Source: an uncultured bacterium
Lineage (GTDB): Bacteria > Babelota > Babeliae > Babelales > Babelaceae
Direction: 5' to 3'
DNA: 64,000 nucleotides
Assembly: GCA_963848965.1 (NCBI GenBank)
Contig: CAWKFG010000004.1
Span: 448,001-512,000, forward strand
Position 1 is the first letter of the stretch; each line of letters begins with the position of its first letter. Below are positions 735 through 6,961 of the stretch, in pieces. Made by a program: the position numbers and the translations under genes. The notes below the pieces were generated by a model. That model was not told the DNA's origin. It did no database searches and saw nothing but the letters and a program-made list of their open reading frames with translations.

Positions 735-812
735 AAACAAAAAGCCTTCAATAATTCATTGAAAAGCGATTAAGTAAAGTCTAAGCTGCTGAGATTTAAG
801 AACTGTCTGGCG

Positions 813-895
813 TTCTAAAGAAATTTACTGTCCCCTGCTATGCATATTTCGGAACCGAGAACTTGAATTTGAGGTTGATCTTAAAGATATCAAAC
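813..895 (+). repeat. Island boundary repeat, copy 1 (att-like)
   Basis: ttctaaagaa..tgtcccctgcta..tttcggaacc..ttgaatttga..cttaaagatatcaaac; aligns with 2959-2985+4144-4200 and 5538-5620. Confidence 0.85.
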
Positions 896-966
896 ACTAT
901 TTTACACTATAAAGCTCAGCAACTGCTTGCTATGTTTCTAGACAGTTAATCTTGCACTTTTGGTTA

Positions 967-1791
967 CTACTTCCCACCAGATATCTCTTTCCTAGATTTC
1001 CAAGGTTTTCCTGGTAGTAGGCTTACCAATTGCTCACTAACCATTTGGAATGCCTCATTTGAAGACCATATTGATTGATCAGCAATCAAATGTACTATAT
1101 CATTTTGAAAATCAGGATTTTGTTGTTTTTCAAATAAGTTCTTTTCAAACTCCGCGCGAGTAATTGATAGCCCTTCATTACCGCAATACTTTTTAAAGAT
1201 ACTTATTACAGCTTCACAATCAATTAACTCTTTTTTCAAGACAAACCATATATCATAAAGATCTCTTCCTTTACTTCTTTGATATAATGCTCTTAACTTT
1301 GTTCCAATAAGTTCATTAAGCTGGTAAGTTTTAATAGCTGACTTACCAGAAAACCATGTGCTCGCTATAGCAAACTCATAATCTATTAAATCATAAACAC
1401 TAAAATGTTCTGTTGTGTTTATTTCGATTTTTAGTTTGCGCTGTATATTATCGATAGAGCTATATTGATAGGTTAACTTAGCACTTCTGTTAGTAAGTTT
1501 GCCCTTAGGCTGCCCCAACCAAGACAAAGCGGTACGGATCTCGAGAATAAGCGGCCCTATAGGTTGAGAGGTAATTTGAACAAGATCAATATCCTCACTA
1601 TAACGCAATGGAGGCTTAAAAAATAACTTATTAAGAGCTGTTCCTCCTCTAAAAACTAAATTTTCCCTAATTTTTTCACGCTCATATAAGTTTATTAACG
1701 CTCGACTGATAATTAAATCCTGCTCTACTTGATAATCAGCTATCCATGGTACATGCTGTCGCCATTCTGATAAGTAAAAAGTTTCAATCAT
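967..1791 (-). CDS. abiEii: AbiEii/AbiGii nucleotidyltransferase toxin (type IV TA)
   Basis: QVEQDL, FRGGTAL.K, RYSEDIDL, K.RAL.QR.KGRDLYD motifs. Confidence 0.9.
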   Translation of the reverse strand: MIETFYLSEWRQHVPWIADYQVEQDLIISRALINLYEREKIRENLVFRGGTALNKLFFKPPLRYSEDIDLVQITSQPIGPLILEIRTALSWLGQPKGKLTNRSAKLTYQYSSIDNIQRKLKIEINTTEHFSVYDLIDYEFAIASTWFSGKSAIKTYQLNELIGTKLRALYQRSKGRDLYDIWFVLKKELIDCEAVISIFKKYCGNEGLSITRAEFEKNLFEKQQNPDFQNDIVHLIADQSIWSSNEAFQMVSEQLVSLLPGKPWKSRKEISGGK

Positions 1792-2582
1792 ATATCACCT
1801 TCTAGCTTGGTGTTTTCAATGATTTTCCAAGTTTCATTTCTTTTTGCTTTACTGAGTTTTGCCTTAAGGCCAGTATGAAGCATCACATAATTAACTCTTG
1901 GTTGTTTTGACAAGTGCTCTTTTATTACGCTTGCCAGGTTTTTTGCTCCAATAAATTCCAAAATATAACCTAGGCGTTGTTTCCAAGGAGTTCCAGGTAG
2001 GTTCTCTATAACTGATTTTAGCCCTTCCTCGGTCATGCTTTCTTTAAGCTCAGCAAGAATTGTGGTTATATTGTTTAAGCCACCACTTTGTTTTACAAAT
2101 TTAATAAGATCTACTGCTGTAGCTTCTGGACTTGAAACCCTAAGTTTACTCTTCAGCGTAGAGAACCAAGTAACAGGAACCTTTTCAATCTCTTGGTTCT
2201 TGATAAAGTTAATTTTAACCTTACCGCAAACTACAGAGCGCAATTTCTTTTCAGTAACTACTTGAAAAACCTGAGGAGCTTGATGTGATGCTCCGTAATA
2301 GCTAGCGGCTGTAATTAAACCTGCATAGTACTTATACCCTAAGTATTCCATTAAATAGGGAATAAACTGATCAGCGGGAATACACTCAAGAATCTTATAT
2401 TCCGGTGGTATTATCACGTAAAACCCTTTTACTGGACTAACGATTTCTCCTTTACCAATAAGGCGAGAAATGGCATGAAGTATAGCATTCCTAGATTTAT
2501 TGAGCTCTTTATAAGCACTATTTATAGTAAAGTAGCATCTACCATAGGCAACTTGCTTGTTTAAATATTCCTTAATCTTCAT
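1788..2582 (-). CDS. abiEi: AbiEi antitoxin / transcriptional regulator
   Basis: N-terminal wHTH, YYAGLITAASYYGA.HQ.PQ, VSSPEATAVDL; 4-bp overlap with the toxin; start placed at MKIKEY (uncertain). Confidence 0.85.
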   Translation of the reverse strand: MKIKEYLNKQVAYGRCYFTINSAYKELNKSRNAILHAISRLIGKGEIVSPVKGFYVIIPPEYKILECIPADQFIPYLMEYLGYKYYAGLITAASYYGASHQAPQVFQVVTEKKLRSVVCGKVKINFIKNQEIEKVPVTWFSTLKSKLRVSSPEATAVDLIKFVKQSGGLNNITTILAELKESMTEEGLKSVIENLPGTPWKQRLGYILEFIGAKNLASVIKEHLSKQPRVNYVMLHTGLKAKLSKAKRNETWKIIENTKLEGDI

Positions 2583-2680: not shown

Positions 2681-2958
2681 AAAATACTCAAAAGTACGCG
2701 TTCCTTAACCCTCTTAGGAGAAAATAAGTAGCTTTTGCTGAATGATTTAAGAACCGAAAATTTTATCTTTGCAACGTCGAAGAAATAATAATTTTAACAA
2801 GCCAGATCTTACATTACCTAGATGTTCATGAAAAAAGCAATTTTACAAAATATCAGCACTTTAGCAATAAAGCTTCATATTTAATAAATATGCATTAAAG
2901 CGCTTCACGAAGACCTTATACTATAATTATATAGTGAATTACATTGAACTGATCTAGT

Positions 2959-2985
2959 TTCTAAAGAAGGTTGGTGTCCCCTGCT
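2959..2985 (+). repeat. Island boundary repeat, copy 2 left half (interrupted by IS110)
   Basis: ttctaaagaaggttggtgtcccctgct; continues at 4144. Confidence 0.85.
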
Positions 2986-2999
2986 TGTATATTGAAATT

Positions 3000-3158
3000 A
3001 TGTTCCTAAATTTGAGACGTTAAGTTTAGGAAAGCTAGCAGGAGCCTGTTCCCCTGCCTGGTTTTTAAAACCGAGTGTCAACTTAGGACCTGCTAGCATA
3101 TATAGTACAGCTCGAACAATCGAGTGGGACAAGGATCCCGTATACAAAACCGAGGCAC
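3000..3158 (+). ncRNA. IS110 bridge RNA
   Basis: 5' hairpin (ttcctaaa/tttaggaa); loop closed by gctagcagg/cctgctagc containing tcccctgc (target match); second loop containing acaatcg and tatacaa (donor matches); ends approximate. Confidence 0.8.
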
Positions 3159-3161
3159 TAT

Positions 3162-4106
3162 ATGAATACTATATCACATATTTTTGTCGGCATCGATATC
3201 TCTAAAAAATTTTTAGATATTCACTTACATCCTGTGGCTAAAGACTTTAGAGTTGCTAACTCACAAGCTGGAATCAATAAACTCATTCAAGTACTTTCTG
3301 CTTATACTGTCGTACAGATCGTTTTTGAGTCTTCTGGTGGTTACGATTTCCTTCTCAAGCAAGAACTTAGCATTAATAATTATAATGCTTGGCAAGTTCA
3401 GCCTAGACGCATTAGAGCCTTCATCATCTCTGAAGGCATTAAGGCTAAAACTGATAAAATTGATGCTCAAATGATTGCTCTCTTTGCTTCTCAAAAACGG
3501 CCTAAATATCATGAGATTATTCGTTCTCAAGACGAGCTAAAGCTCTGTGCTCTCGTCAAATTCAGGACTAACATTGTCCGAAACATTGTTCAAGAAACCA
3601 ATAAATTGCAGCATCCTCAACAAGTTTACTGTAAAAATTTTCTTGAAGCTCATATCTCCTTTATGGAAAGACAGTTACAGGAAGTTGAACAAGAAATTGA
3701 ACAGCTGATCCAAGACAATGAATCTCTTAATAAAAAATGCCATATTATTGAGTCTATGCCTGGTATCGGCAAAGTCACTGCCTGCTCTTTGCTTGCAGAA
3801 ATGCCTGAGCTTGGCAAAGTCGGTAATAAGCAAATAGCCGCTATTCTAGGTGTAGCACCTTTTATTAAGCAAAGTGGTGGATCTAAAGGCACTGCATCAA
3901 TTAGCGGTGGTAGACAAGCTACCCGTGATATCCTTTATATGGCTACATTAGCAGTTATCAGATTTAATCCTGCACTTAAATGCTTTTATAAACGGCTACG
4001 CACTGTTGGTAAAAAAGCTAAAGTTGCTCTCATTGCTGTTATGCGAAAGGTTATTGGTATTTTAAATGTTATGGTTCGAAAAGGAGAACAATGGCAAACT
4101 ACTTAA
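3162..4106 (+). CDS. IS110 family transposase/recombinase (DEDD RuvC + Transposase_20)
   Basis: VGIDISK, FESSGGY, KTDKIDA, SMPGIG, GVAP...QSGG motifs. Confidence 0.95.
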   Translation: MNTISHIFVGIDISKKFLDIHLHPVAKDFRVANSQAGINKLIQVLSAYTVVQIVFESSGGYDFLLKQELSINNYNAWQVQPRRIRAFIISEGIKAKTDKIDAQMIALFASQKRPKYHEIIRSQDELKLCALVKFRTNIVRNIVQETNKLQHPQQVYCKNFLEAHISFMERQLQEVEQEIEQLIQDNESLNKKCHIIESMPGIGKVTACSLLAEMPELGKVGNKQIAAILGVAPFIKQSGGSKGTASISGGRQATRDILYMATLAVIRFNPALKCFYKRLRTVGKKAKVALIAVMRKVIGILNVMVRKGEQWQTT

Positions 4107-4143
4107 AATAATTTTTAAACTTGTTGACTTTTAACACAATCGT

Positions 4144-4200
4144 TTACATGTTTCGGAACCGGAAGCTCATTTTTGAATTTGATCTTAAAGATATTCAATC
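4144..4200 (+). repeat. Island boundary repeat, copy 2 right half
   Basis: ttacatgtttcggaaccggaagctc..tttgaatttgatcttaaagatatt. Confidence 0.85.
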
Positions 4201-4318
4201 AATCATTGCTTCATACAATTTTAGCTTATATTGAAAACTTATATAATAAGCTTTCGATGGTTTACTTCTTCTAGGTATCAGCATTAGAAGGATAAAAAAG
4301 GTAAAACTTCTAGGGATT

Positions 4319-5305
4319 TTACTCTTTTGCGCCATATTTTTTAAGTAACTCTACTATATCTGAATGACCTTTTTCTGTAGCAAGCATTAAAGCAGTTTCG
4401 CCAAACCTATTTCGTACATTAACTTCAGCACCTTTAGCTAAGAGCATTTGAACTATATCTTTATGGCCACCTCGTGTAGCATGCATTAAAACAGTACTTG
4501 TATACAGATCTTTAGCATTAACATCAGCACCAGCCTTAATCAGAAGTTCTACTACCTCTTTATGACCATTTCTTGCAGCGTCCATTAAAGCGGTAAATCC
4601 CACAATATTATCTCGAGCGTTAATATCAGCACCAGCTTGTATAAGCATTTCTACTATTTCTTTATAGCCTTTCACTGCGGGCCTCTTTAAAGCACTATAA
4701 TTATCTTTAGTTTTAACGCCAATGTTAGCATCAGCCCCTTTCTCTAGAAGCAACGCTACAATTTCTCTATAGCCGTTTTGTGCAGCATAATACAAGGCAG
4801 TGCAGCCAAACATTTCCTCTTGAGTATCAATATCACTAATACCTTTACTTAAAATATCTCTTACTTTTTCAATATTTCCCTTTCCAGACGCTTCAATAAG
4901 CCTTAAAGCATTAGGATGTAGCTCTAGCAATTTTTGTGCACTTTGAACTCCACGATTTTCAAGGTCTTTTAGTATCCAATTGGGTTTATATTGTCGAGCA
5001 TACGCTTTTCGTTTTAACTCATTGAGAAGGAATCTCACAAGATCTACATTATCAAATAAGGCTTTATAGTTTTCATTCCTTGCCAATTCTTCTATTTTCT
5101 TAAGAGCTTCAGAAAATGTTTTTGATGACTCTAGAGTTTCTTTGATACTACACTCTAAAGCCTCTCTGATTTTATTATATACTACAAAATGGTTCAGCTC
5201 TTTCCTCAGCTCTTGCGGCAAGTATTCTAGATAACTCTTTTGCTTTTGCATCCCAAGACCAGACGTAAAAAATCCTAACAATAAGATAACTATTACCTTT
5301 TTCAT
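4319..5305 (-). CDS. Secreted ankyrin-repeat protein
   Basis: Signal peptide MKKVIVILLL..GMQ; about 6 TALxxAA..GH ankyrin repeats. Confidence 0.9.
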   Translation of the reverse strand: MKKVIVILLLGFFTSGLGMQKQKSYLEYLPQELRKELNHFVVYNKIREALECSIKETLESSKTFSEALKKIEELARNENYKALFDNVDLVRFLLNELKRKAYARQYKPNWILKDLENRGVQSAQKLLELHPNALRLIEASGKGNIEKVRDILSKGISDIDTQEEMFGCTALYYAAQNGYREIVALLLEKGADANIGVKTKDNYSALKRPAVKGYKEIVEMLIQAGADINARDNIVGFTALMDAARNGHKEVVELLIKAGADVNAKDLYTSTVLMHATRGGHKDIVQMLLAKGAEVNVRNRFGETALMLATEKGHSDIVELLKKYGAKE

Positions 5306-5537
5306 GCTTAATTTTCTTTCCAATATTTTTACTGTTATGATTTTATTATAGTTCATAAAGGCACAAGATTCAACTAGCAATTAACTTCTAATGTTAAAAA
5401 GAATAAAACCTTATGCGTTCTAGTTGATTTTAAGAAACAAGCTAGATAAAGGATCTTTCATTAAGCATACGATACAAAATACTCAAATTAGTGATCTTTG
5501 ATGTAAGCCTATGCTAGAAATGTTTTTCTATTCAAGG

Positions 5538-5620
5538 TTCTAAAGAATATTGGTGTCCCCTGCTATACATGTTTCTGAACCAAAAGCTTGAATTTGAGAC
5601 CTGTTTAGATGATATCAAAC
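5538..5620 (+). repeat. Island boundary repeat, copy 3
   Basis: ttctaaagaatattggtgtcccctgctatacatgtttctgaacc..ttgaatttga..gatatcaaac. Confidence 0.85.
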
Positions 5621-5663
5621 AGTTTTATCTAGCCTTCAACATTTAGTAAAGTAATTTTTAATA

Positions 5664-6239
5664 TCAAGATCTAGCAAAAGCTAGTAACTTTGAATAATCA
5701 CCTTTGTCTGCATATTGTAATGCTTCAATATATAGTTTCCTAACAGGAGACGAGTTATATAAACTTTGATTTAAACCCCAACTAAAGCGATCATAACCTT
5801 GTTGTGTTATGAGCACATCAGCCATTAATCGAGCATGCCTTCCATTACCGTTAGGAAAGGGATGAATCCATACCAATTTATAATGAAGTCTGATTGCTAT
5901 CTCTTCTTTAGAGAAGGACTCATGTAGCAATTGGTAACTAACGTCATCACACAATTTTCTAACTTCCACAGGAATCAAATACCAACTAATACCAAGGTTT
6001 TTCTCAGTCTTACGAAACTTGCCTGCCCACTTCCATGTTTGATTAAACATATGCTTATGCAGCTGCTGTATAAATTCAACAGATAAAATACCATGTTGTT
6101 TAAATGCCCATTGTTGAGCCTTGAGAATATTTTTTTCTTCCCAAGCATTCAACTCTTCCTGAGTAGTAATATGTACAGGTAGTAAATCAGCTAACTCGCC
6201 AGGATCAATTGGTGTCGCACCCTCAGGATAATTAAACAT
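5664..6239 (-). CDS. Mobile mystery protein B (Fic domain)
   Basis: GATPID, HPFPNGNGRHAR Fic motif, WKWAGKFR. Confidence 0.9.
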   Translation of the reverse strand: MFNYPEGATPIDPGELADLLPVHITTQEELNAWEEKNILKAQQWAFKQHGILSVEFIQQLHKHMFNQTWKWAGKFRKTEKNLGISWYLIPVEVRKLCDDVSYQLLHESFSKEEIAIRLHYKLVWIHPFPNGNGRHARLMADVLITQQGYDRFSWGLNQSLYNSSPVRKLYIEALQYADKGDYSKLLAFARS

Positions 6240-6705
6240 GACCTTTATCCCATAAGTTTCTTGGGTTACCTTGTAACAGCTCTTCAACTAAAGCATCTTC
6301 CTGTTGCTTTAATTGCTTTGGATTTAAACTTTGCTGTTCCAATCCCATTGAATGATTTATTAATTTTATCTGTTTTTGCGCTACAGTTCTAGCTTGATCT
6401 TCAAGTATCTGATCGAGTGGCTTTAAAGGCACAAGGCAATAAACCAGCTTACAGTTCATAGCAGCTGCAGCCTGTTCAAGAGTCTTTAAGTTAATAGTTC
6501 CTTTTTGTTCACTCTGTTCCATAGCAATAATGTTAGACTGGCTACATCCAACCTTTTGAGATAAGGCGTAACTTGAAAGTCCTAATGATTCACGTATAGC
6601 CCGTATCCATCCCTTTTTAGGAGGTGGCTTTTTAGTGAGTTCTAAAAACTTACTTGTAGTCTCTTGAAGTTGCTCTCGCATTAACTTTCTAAAGATATTT
6701 GTCAT
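6232..6705 (-). CDS. Mobile mystery protein A (XRE HTH)
   Basis: P.KGWIRAIRESLG, HTH, HSMGLEQQ, PRNLW; overlaps the Fic gene. Confidence 0.9.
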   Translation of the reverse strand: MTNIFRKLMREQLQETTSKFLELTKKPPPKKGWIRAIRESLGLSSYALSQKVGCSQSNIIAMEQSEQKGTINLKTLEQAAAAMNCKLVYCLVPLKPLDQILEDQARTVAQKQIKLINHSMGLEQQSLNPKQLKQQEDALVEELLQGNPRNLWDKGHV

Positions 6706-6961
6706 ACATAATAACCTATAATTTATCAAATCATCTAAAATTAATCAATTATAGCTTATCAAAATTGGATAAAAAAATCAATTAAAATTGATTAAAATTT
6801 CGTCGAAACTATACTAAGGATACGTAGTAAAGCACTATATTCTTGTAAGAGTGACAAATTTACTTAGAGATTAACTTGAAAGTACTTAGTTGTAGATATA
6901 GCACGATATGTCAAACTAAGTTAAACTATTATTGTATAATAATTCTTCGTTTTAATGTGAA

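Follow-up and report, generated by a model that had tools for sequence, protein, structure and literature searches.

Bridge-RNA-guided recombination is known from IS621 of Escherichia coli, whose RNA is described in the cited sections of Durrant et al. 2024 (PMC11208160) and Hiraizumi et al. 2026 (PMC13626964), and for which the former gives the rule that the 3' side of each RNA loop holds the reverse complement of the core plus the right half. Here we describe an insertion sequence at positions 2986-4142 of a 64,000-nt stretch of DNA (hereafter the window, meaning that whole stretch: positions 448,001 to 512,000, forward strand, of contig CAWKFG010000004.1 in assembly GCA_963848965.1) from an uncultured, Dependentiae-like lineage, which we read, with a probability of roughly 0.9, as an intact member of the IS110 group that moves by bridge-RNA-guided recombination in the manner of IS621. 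The mechanism has been known since 2024, and the element is a new example of it rather than a new mechanism. The genome assembly examined comprises 1.73 Mb in 5 contigs, and the window lies on contig C4; the nearest homologues of its AtpA bear Dependentiae/Babeliales names, on which the description of the lineage is based.

Judged by the published description of IS621, it and the element share a DEDD/Ser recombinase and a repeat as the natural target. In both, a long left end encodes an RNA in which a 5' hairpin is followed by a target loop and a donor loop, and the right end has a -35 box and the left end a -10 box, which here are -35-like and -10-like sequences. The dinucleotide behind the right target guide may also, as in IS621, pair once the strands have been exchanged. 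A left end of 176 nt and a right end of 36 nt also fit the IS110 group as characterised in the cited sections of PMC11208160. They differ in that the right guides here read TT and not CT, the left guides mismatch the core, the right target guide is 7 nt long whereas wild-type IS621 has a 4-bp pairing of right target guide with right target (RTG-RT; PMC11208160), and the host is a Dependentiae-like bacterium rather than Escherichia coli. With ISPpu9, ISPpu10 and other IS110 elements that target repetitive extragenic palindromes (REPs), the element shares a single fixed position in a dispersed intergenic repeat, and its copies, like those of ISPpu9/ISPpu10, mark the ends of a duplicated segment (contig C3 versus contig C1); unlike theirs, however, its target lacks a palindromic stem-loop and derives from a coding 3' end and not from a REP. 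Members of the IS1111 group, which Post and Hall reportedly described in 2009 as targeting integron attC sites, provide a further likeness, that of an IS110-family element living in the boundary repeats of a cassette-like array. In that group, however, the guide RNA lies in the right end and the ends carry subterminal inverted repeats, whereas here the RNA lies in the left end and the array has neither an integron integrase nor an attC fold.

The element consists of the 176-nt left end, a 314-amino-acid (aa) recombinase gene preceded by a ribosome-binding site (GAGG, 3152-3155), and the 36-nt right end (Table 1). The recombinase matches Pfam PF01548 over residues 9-150 (E 3.1e-19) and PF02371 over residues 193-277 (E 2.5e-19), and in an alignment of 25 homologues D12, E56, D98 and S238 are invariant while D101 is at least 90% conserved, so that the assignment to the IS110 family made in a preliminary description of the locus holds. 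Its nearest protein among 5.8 billion is 61% identical.

To fix the ends we relied on relatives, which were found in 19 of 201 genomes of the same order searched (this genome included) and yielded 14 distinct left ends for alignment, at 38-57% protein identity. The left end starts with TGTAT in all 14, preceded by CT in 13, and the right ends, where they could be located, finish with ...TTGACTTTTAACACAATC(A/G) followed by CT in 12 of 13; by homology, therefore, the element runs from TGTATATTG at its start to AACACAATCG at its end. The junction string ttgtata that had been noted at 2985 is present, but homology places the start of the element itself at T2986, with TGTATA. The longer left end with the guide RNA inside it is the arrangement that characterises the IS110 group. 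An alternative parse, with a GT core and a right end finishing at AATC, was ruled out by the model-based alignment described below, in which the AA of both right guides falls on the relatives' AG, and by the right-end alignment, in which ACAATCG aligns with ACAATCA. One relative (L031, in G125) has the first 18 nt of its left end plus the core in tandem duplicate (CT TGTATGTTAAAAATAG twice). Only in a circular junction of right end with left end do TTGACT and TATATT come to stand 17 nt apart, and the integrated copy has no promoter-like site upstream; TATATT may act as a promoter box in the circle.

The preliminary description had also proposed a two-loop bridge RNA in the left non-coding end, and helix covariation and a covariance model bear this out. 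The interval 2986-3161 folds at -55.3 kcal/mol (z -4.26; equally stable shuffles, 0/200), and RNAalifold on 15 left ends recovers the target outer stem, the second stem, the donor outer stem and the donor inner hairpin, with double changes at 13 of 18 pairs. When a hand-drawn structure that adds the target-loop inner hairpin was scored on 12 relatives, 89.4% of cells paired, as against 35-42% with the partner slid by 1-3 columns; both sides change at 13 pairs. None of 500 shuffles attains these two figures, although the kinship of the relatives inflates this support. Finally, a covariance model built from 12 relatives (38-47% protein identity), leaving out this element and its two closest kin, matches 3030-3158 end to end (model positions 1-133) at 64.3 bits and E 2.9e-13, the sole further match in the window being weak and due to these stems read from the other strand. 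In 100 related loci the model finds 82 matches at E<=0.001, which include elements at 32-40% protein identity from other phyla; when these loci were aligned, the RNA ended, among the matches listed, at or just before the recombinase match. The family consensus leaves all four guides in loops. In this element the AG at 3123-3124 lets the 3' part of the left donor guide (UCGAG) pair with GCUCGA in competition with the donor loop, and the single-sequence fold adopts this alternative hairpin (3110-3115/3120-3125).

The guide strings themselves lie where they had been reported. This applies to tcccctgc at 2977-2984 and 3050-3057, to tgtcaa at 3076-3081, to the target-loop stem gctagcagg (3034-3042) with cctgctagc (3089-3097), to acaatcg at 3116-3122, identical to 4136-4142, and to tatacaa at 3141-3147, the reverse complement of ttgtata at 2985-2991; tcccctgc likewise recurs in all three repeats of the region (TCCCCTGC at 831, 2977 and 5556). 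In the window as a whole TCCCCTGC occurs 6 times where 0.59 would be expected, a count reached in 0/100 shuffles, and three of the six occurrences are in repeats. The strands on which the guides lie agree with the IS621 rules in the cited sections of PMC11208160. Chance matches of this kind were gauged with 20000 dinucleotide shuffles of 3000-3161. Of these, 42 contained the left-flank 8-mer, 72 the right-end 7-mer and 257 the left-end complement 7-mer; at least two of these strings coincided in 1/20000, and the real left end has all three. With its core positions counted, the left donor guide scores 7/9. The right target guide fits the two C1 copies at 6/7, or at 7/7 if one G:U is counted.

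The same correspondence recurs among the relatives. Across 15 elements the 9-mer of the left flank matches its cognate target loop at 7.1/9 on average (24 copies) and non-cognate loops at 4.5/9 (196 pairs), and the 7-mer of the right flank scores 5.9/7 with cognate loops (21 copies) and 3.8/7 with non-cognate ones (168 pairs). A placement of the right target guide by best match went wrong for 3 of 14 elements, in which the match was only 4/7, and the model-based alignment was used instead. The donor guide tracks the right end from element to element (ACAAUCA/ACAATCA, ACAAUUA/ACAATTA, CGAUUGA/CGATTGA and, here, ACAAUCG/ACAATCG), and the same pattern of guides with flanks and ends was read by eye on the metagenome contigs L057, L058, L060 and L061.

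The genome holds three copies of the element that are 100% identical, the one in the window and two on contig C1, and all three sit at the same position of one repeat family within diverged flanks. A nucleotide profile of this target repeat (nhmmer, E<0.001) finds 13 sites, of which 8 form a same-strand array at C4:435213-453621, 3 lie on C1 and one each on C3 and C2; three of the 13 contain the element, at one and the same position in each case. This placement, together with the excess of cognate over non-cognate guide matches, upholds the earlier proposal that the RNA is programmed against the repeat. A variant of about 93% identity occurs on metagenome contigs from runs X1-X3 (two studies), with the same junctions and different outer flanks. 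It covers 2975-4161 with 78 differences in 1187 bases, and the sequence beyond differs, although the right side is still repeat-like; in it G3075 is replaced by A, which raises the match of the right guide to TACAT from 5/7 to 6/7. This variant may be a further insertion or an orthologous one. At C1:407856-407925 (L004) a 70-nt relic of 81% identity represents the 3' end of a related recombinase gene. The right half of a repeat copy follows it, and it resembles the remains of an earlier insertion into such a site. Contig C3 (9474 bp) is 99.55% identical to C1:387180-396639, which the two C1 copies enclose, and on one side it breaks off at an element boundary; either the assembly contains a second strain, or the genome has a further, element-flanked copy of this segment.

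The IS110 group is marked by a 2-nt core at either boundary (CT in IS621) and by ends that lack terminal inverted repeats. The core dinucleotides were examined in a model-based alignment of 76 distinct related RNAs. At its core-binding positions the right target guide has AG in 64 of the 76 and AA in 2, and the right donor guide has AG in 72 and AA in 2; the AA pair in each case is this element and that of G166, a pattern indicating that this lineage reads a TT core. For IS621, according to the cited sections of PMC11208160, TT was tolerated less well than CT and a 7-nt right target guide, the length found here, improved it. At the core positions of the left donor guide, CU is found in 45 of the 76 RNAs and AG in 3 (31 depart from CU). 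The window copy has CT on its left and TT on its right, and both C1 copies have TT on both sides. Unequal cores occur in three elements (the window copy, CT/TT; G166, CT/TT; G157, AT/CT), in each of which the right junction carries the core that its own right guides read and the left junction differs; these three cases would fit the account of IS621 in the cited sections of PMC13626964, where exchange of the top strands carries the core along with the left half.

After the right target guide, C3082 is complementary to G3122, the last base of the left donor guide, which spells G4142 of the donor left half. The same pairing is present in 72 of the 76 RNAs (62 C:G, 9 U:A, 1 G:C; shuffle mean 54.4, maximum 62) and appears to agree with the handshake guide of PMC13626964, in its cited sections. 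In the donor loop, the corresponding base and the left guide show a weak signal in distant RNAs, at 30/71 by a heuristic count (shuffle mean 20.1, maximum 28). CCCCT does not stand equally far from the element in all copies: the spacing in the window copy (TCCCCTG CT) and that in the C1 copies (CCCCCTAC TT) are one base apart, so that the left guide must pair in two registers. Both registers were seen by eye in relatives, with the core-binding CU either directly before the inner hairpin or one base away, and since the variant of about 93% identity has the same left junction, the shift is no artefact of assembly. In most of the empty array copies the sequence is TCCCCTGCTATACATG, which exceeds the inferred site of the window copy by a single base; the shorter spacing of that site would bring TACAT into the register of the right guide; this may be why, among the array copies, only this one is occupied.

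We propose the following mechanism. The element would excise as a circle, whose junction would place TTGACT 17 nt before TATATT and so drive an RNA of about 160 nt from the left end, to which the DEDD/Ser recombinase would bind. With UCCCCUGCCU and GUGUCAA the target loop would recognise both strands of the repeat around the 2-nt core, and with ACAAUCG and UAUACAAA the donor loop would read the element's own right end and left end; the CU after the right target guide could then pair with the end of the donor left half once the strands have been exchanged. It would be the RNA, and not the protein, that sets the target.

Several observations weigh against this account. The four guides do not all cover the core: only the right guides, with AA, match TT, and the left guides mismatch it, with CU or CC in the target loop and AG in the donor loop, a mismatch tempered by the variability of the position across the family. 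A3149, which follows the right donor guide, pairs with none of the three left flanks; the right flank of the window copy fits the right target guide at 5/7 only; and the window copy and the C1 copies need left-guide registers 1 nt apart. Folded alone, the RNA leaves UCGAG unpaired with a probability of 0.12-0.28, and the bridge architecture lies 3.0 kcal/mol above the minimum-free-energy fold. A near-ideal site (CCCCCTGC TT GACTTA) is empty at C1:392565 and on contig C3. An Rfam scan of 2700-4400, at E up to 10, gave four weak unrelated matches and no bridge RNA family, and a search of sequencing runs gave no RNA run with the locus, the best DNA runs holding at most 0.13 of the sampled words.

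Some of these points would be expected if the element were a bridge-RNA element by descent that is now crippled, its copies being recent relics or mobilised only in trans. On this account recognition of the donor would fail because of the TT core, the core-binding bases that do not match it and the hairpin in which the left donor guide is tied up, and the rarity of AG in the donor loop (3/76) and of AA in both right guides (2/76) lends it some weight, as do the greater stability of the alternative hairpin in the donor domain folded alone (-11.7 as against -9.4 kcal/mol for the donor loop, a difference of 2.3) and the frameshifted recombinase of G166, the closest relative with these features. 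Non-CT cores were also less efficient for IS621 in the cited sections of PMC11208160, but there a 7-nt right target guide rescued them, and the right guides here do match the TT core. That the element exists in three identical copies, its 314-aa frame unbroken and every catalytic residue retained, further speaks against decay, as does the variant of about 93% identity, which keeps the frame over the covered stretch (every covering contig shares two insertions in the gene, of 3 letters and, close to the 3' end, of 1 letter). We think it unlikely that the element is crippled; judged from its sequence, it is probably active.

The shared context of the copies could alternatively stem from joint duplication of repeat and element, by segmental duplication or by homologous recombination between repeats. 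No RNA would then guide the choice of site, and the matches between loops and flanks would be leftovers of a captured target. The near-identity of C3 to the 9.5-kb C1 segment means that duplication or strain mixture does occur, and the right flanks of the two C1 copies are alike. Against this, the copies of the element are 100% identical while their flanks, compared by eye, have little in common on the left and numerous differences on the right, the window copy lies on another contig in a different repeat subfamily, and the matching of loop to flank recurs in 14 relatives with unrelated targets; we regard duplication as a very improbable source of the pattern. Recognition might instead depend chiefly on the protein, or on a structure that the DNA of the repeat adopts, the RNA match playing a lesser part. 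There is precedent in ISPpu10, for which, in the cited part of bioRxiv 10.64898/2026.03.19.712850, a stem-loop encoded by the target adds specificity, and the occupation of only 3 of the 13 repeat sites, with a well-matched one empty, would suit such a model; yet the repeat has no significant fold, and the two occupied subfamilies differ outside the bases that the guides match, which makes this choice of target by protein or structure improbable in our view. On balance we retain the reading of an intact, RNA-guided element.

As to the target, the preliminary description had called the repeat att-like and placed it at cassette boundaries. In the sense of an integron attC or cassette site this is unsupported: no integrase was present among the 29 open reading frames (ORFs) checked around the array (about 20 kb upstream plus the ORFs after it), the genome's only two tyrosine recombinases, at C1:311k and C1:501k, are off the array contig, and four folds of three repeat copies gave z values of -1.23 to +1.27. 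A role as an attachment site of a serine recombinase is, by contrast, possible. The repeat was also considered as a tRNA fragment, which was ruled out by comparison with the real tRNA-Arg beside the genome's own serine recombinase. Rfam on 40 kb of array sequence found nothing but a group II intron, and Pfam and NCBIfam found no match to the peptides that the repeat encodes.

In one frame the repeat copies encode a conserved peptide, roughly SKEDWCPLLYMFRNRELEFEVDLKDIQ, and the changes between subfamilies look synonymous (TTT/TTC, CGG/AGG, ATT/ATC/ATA). A DNA search for the repeat in 40 genomes of the same family gave no match, and it is seen there only by a profile of the peptide, which finds 72 proteins among 1.84 billion, most of them tiny ORFs. 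In four longer proteins (P0138, P0145, P0170 and P0137) the motif forms the extreme C-terminus, and by eye these resemble the C-terminal part of large serine recombinases; in G143 it ends a 522-aa Resolvase/Recombinase/Zn-ribbon protein that adjoins primase-helicase genes. The one large serine recombinase of this genome, of 486 aa (ORF 820-2280, minus strand, within L174, C1:376290-379526), is some 8 kb away from the closest C1 copy of the element. It stops at ...QAWRAR, exactly at the would-be start of the motif, because the gene runs into a tRNA-Arg gene (759-834), whose 3' end it overlaps. By these comparisons the repeat shares homology with large serine recombinase genes at their 3' end; it may serve a serine recombinase as attachment site, or be a trail that gene 3' ends have left. 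Of the 201 genomes of the order, 62 have matches to the peptide profile, often in same-strand arrays with matches 1-4 kb apart, between toxin-antitoxin genes (L172 in G004:C8 and L173 in G112:C7 are among them), and in the present genome, too, copies on one strand set toxin-antitoxin and defence genes apart; the one array example examined has no recombinase within 12 kb.

A tentative suggestion, which we consider rather doubtful, is that the target repeat is the recombination site of a large-serine-recombinase system that accumulates cassettes, and that the bridge RNA is tuned to a variable 8-nt spacer of that site. The site would then overlap the last ~35 codons of the recombinase gene, and the same-strand arrays, 1-4 kb apart, would separate toxin-antitoxin and defence cassettes both here and across the order. 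Among the entries listed by literature searches, nothing relevant turned up on serine-recombinase cassette arrays or on IS110 elements at serine recombinase sites.

Table 1. Features of the element, its RNA and its target repeat, in window positions.
Feature	Position	Strand	Basis
Insertion-sequence body	2986..4142	+	3 copies 100% identical; both ends homologous to relatives' ends
Left core copy CT (TT in two C1 copies)	2984..2985	+	Junction reading; CT before TGTAT in 13/14 relatives
Right core copy TT	4143..4144	+	Junction reading
Non-coding left end, 176 nt, encodes bridge RNA	2986..3161	+	Fold, consensus structure, covariance model
TATATT, -10-like box	2988..2993	+	Read from sequence; TTGACT and TAT(G/A)TT conserved in relatives
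5' stem-loop	3003..3032	+	Minimum-free-energy fold
Target-binding loop domain; stems 3034-3042/3089-3097 and 3045-3047/3085-3087, inner hairpin 3060-3072	3034..3097	+	RNAalifold, pair counts, covariance model
Left target guide UCCCCUGCCU	3050..3059	+	8/9 against left flank plus core of window copy; 7/9 against C1 copies in a register shifted by 1 nt
Right target guide GUGUCAA 3075-3081 (core-binding AA 3080-3081), then handshake CU 3082-3083	3075..3083	+	
Donor-binding loop domain; outer stem CUC 3111-3113/GAG 3152-3154, inner hairpin 3126-3129/3136-3139	3111..3154	+	Consensus, covariance model
Left donor guide ACAAUCG 3116-3122, then AG not matching TT core	3116..3124	+	Equals right end 4136-4142 (7/7)
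Right donor guide UAUACAAA 3141-3148, then dinucleotide AC	3141..3150	+	Reverse complement of TT+TGTATA (8/8)
Recombinase gene, 314 aa; RuvC-like DEDD domain and Tnp domain	3162..4106	+	Pfam, conserved residues
Right end, 36 nt; -35-like TTGACT 4124-4129, left donor ACAATCG 4136-4142	4107..4142	+	
Left half of occupied repeat; left target TCCCCTG 2977-2983	2958..2983	+	nhmmer C4:450958-450986, copy alignment
Right half of occupied repeat (TACATGTTTCGGAACC...)	4145..4207	+	nhmmer C4:452143-452207
Unoccupied repeat copy (TCCCCTGCTATGCATA)	811..902	+	nhmmer
Unoccupied repeat copy (TCCCCTGCTATACATG)	5535..5621	+	nhmmer

The cassettes beside the element (967-2636, 4319-5380 and 5664-6729) encode an AbiEii/AbiEi pair, an ankyrin-repeat protein and a Fic protein with a helix-turn-helix partner. 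Elsewhere inside the array, a group II intron (C4:444984-446776; L137:16984-18776), recognised by its reverse transcriptase/maturase ORF and an Rfam match to domain V, interrupts a gene for a YhcG-type PDDEXK nuclease.

Since thousands of such RNAs have already been predicted, the element taken alone is not surprising and its own interest is modest. What it provides is a natural bridge-RNA code that can be read directly and checked against three insertions in one genome, and a natural TT-core system with a 7-nt right target guide and two target registers one nucleotide apart; the TT core and the dual register bear on the tolerance of the recombinase, which is of relevance to programmable tools. 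If the target repeat were indeed the site of a serine recombinase, one mobile element would here be reading the attachment site of another.

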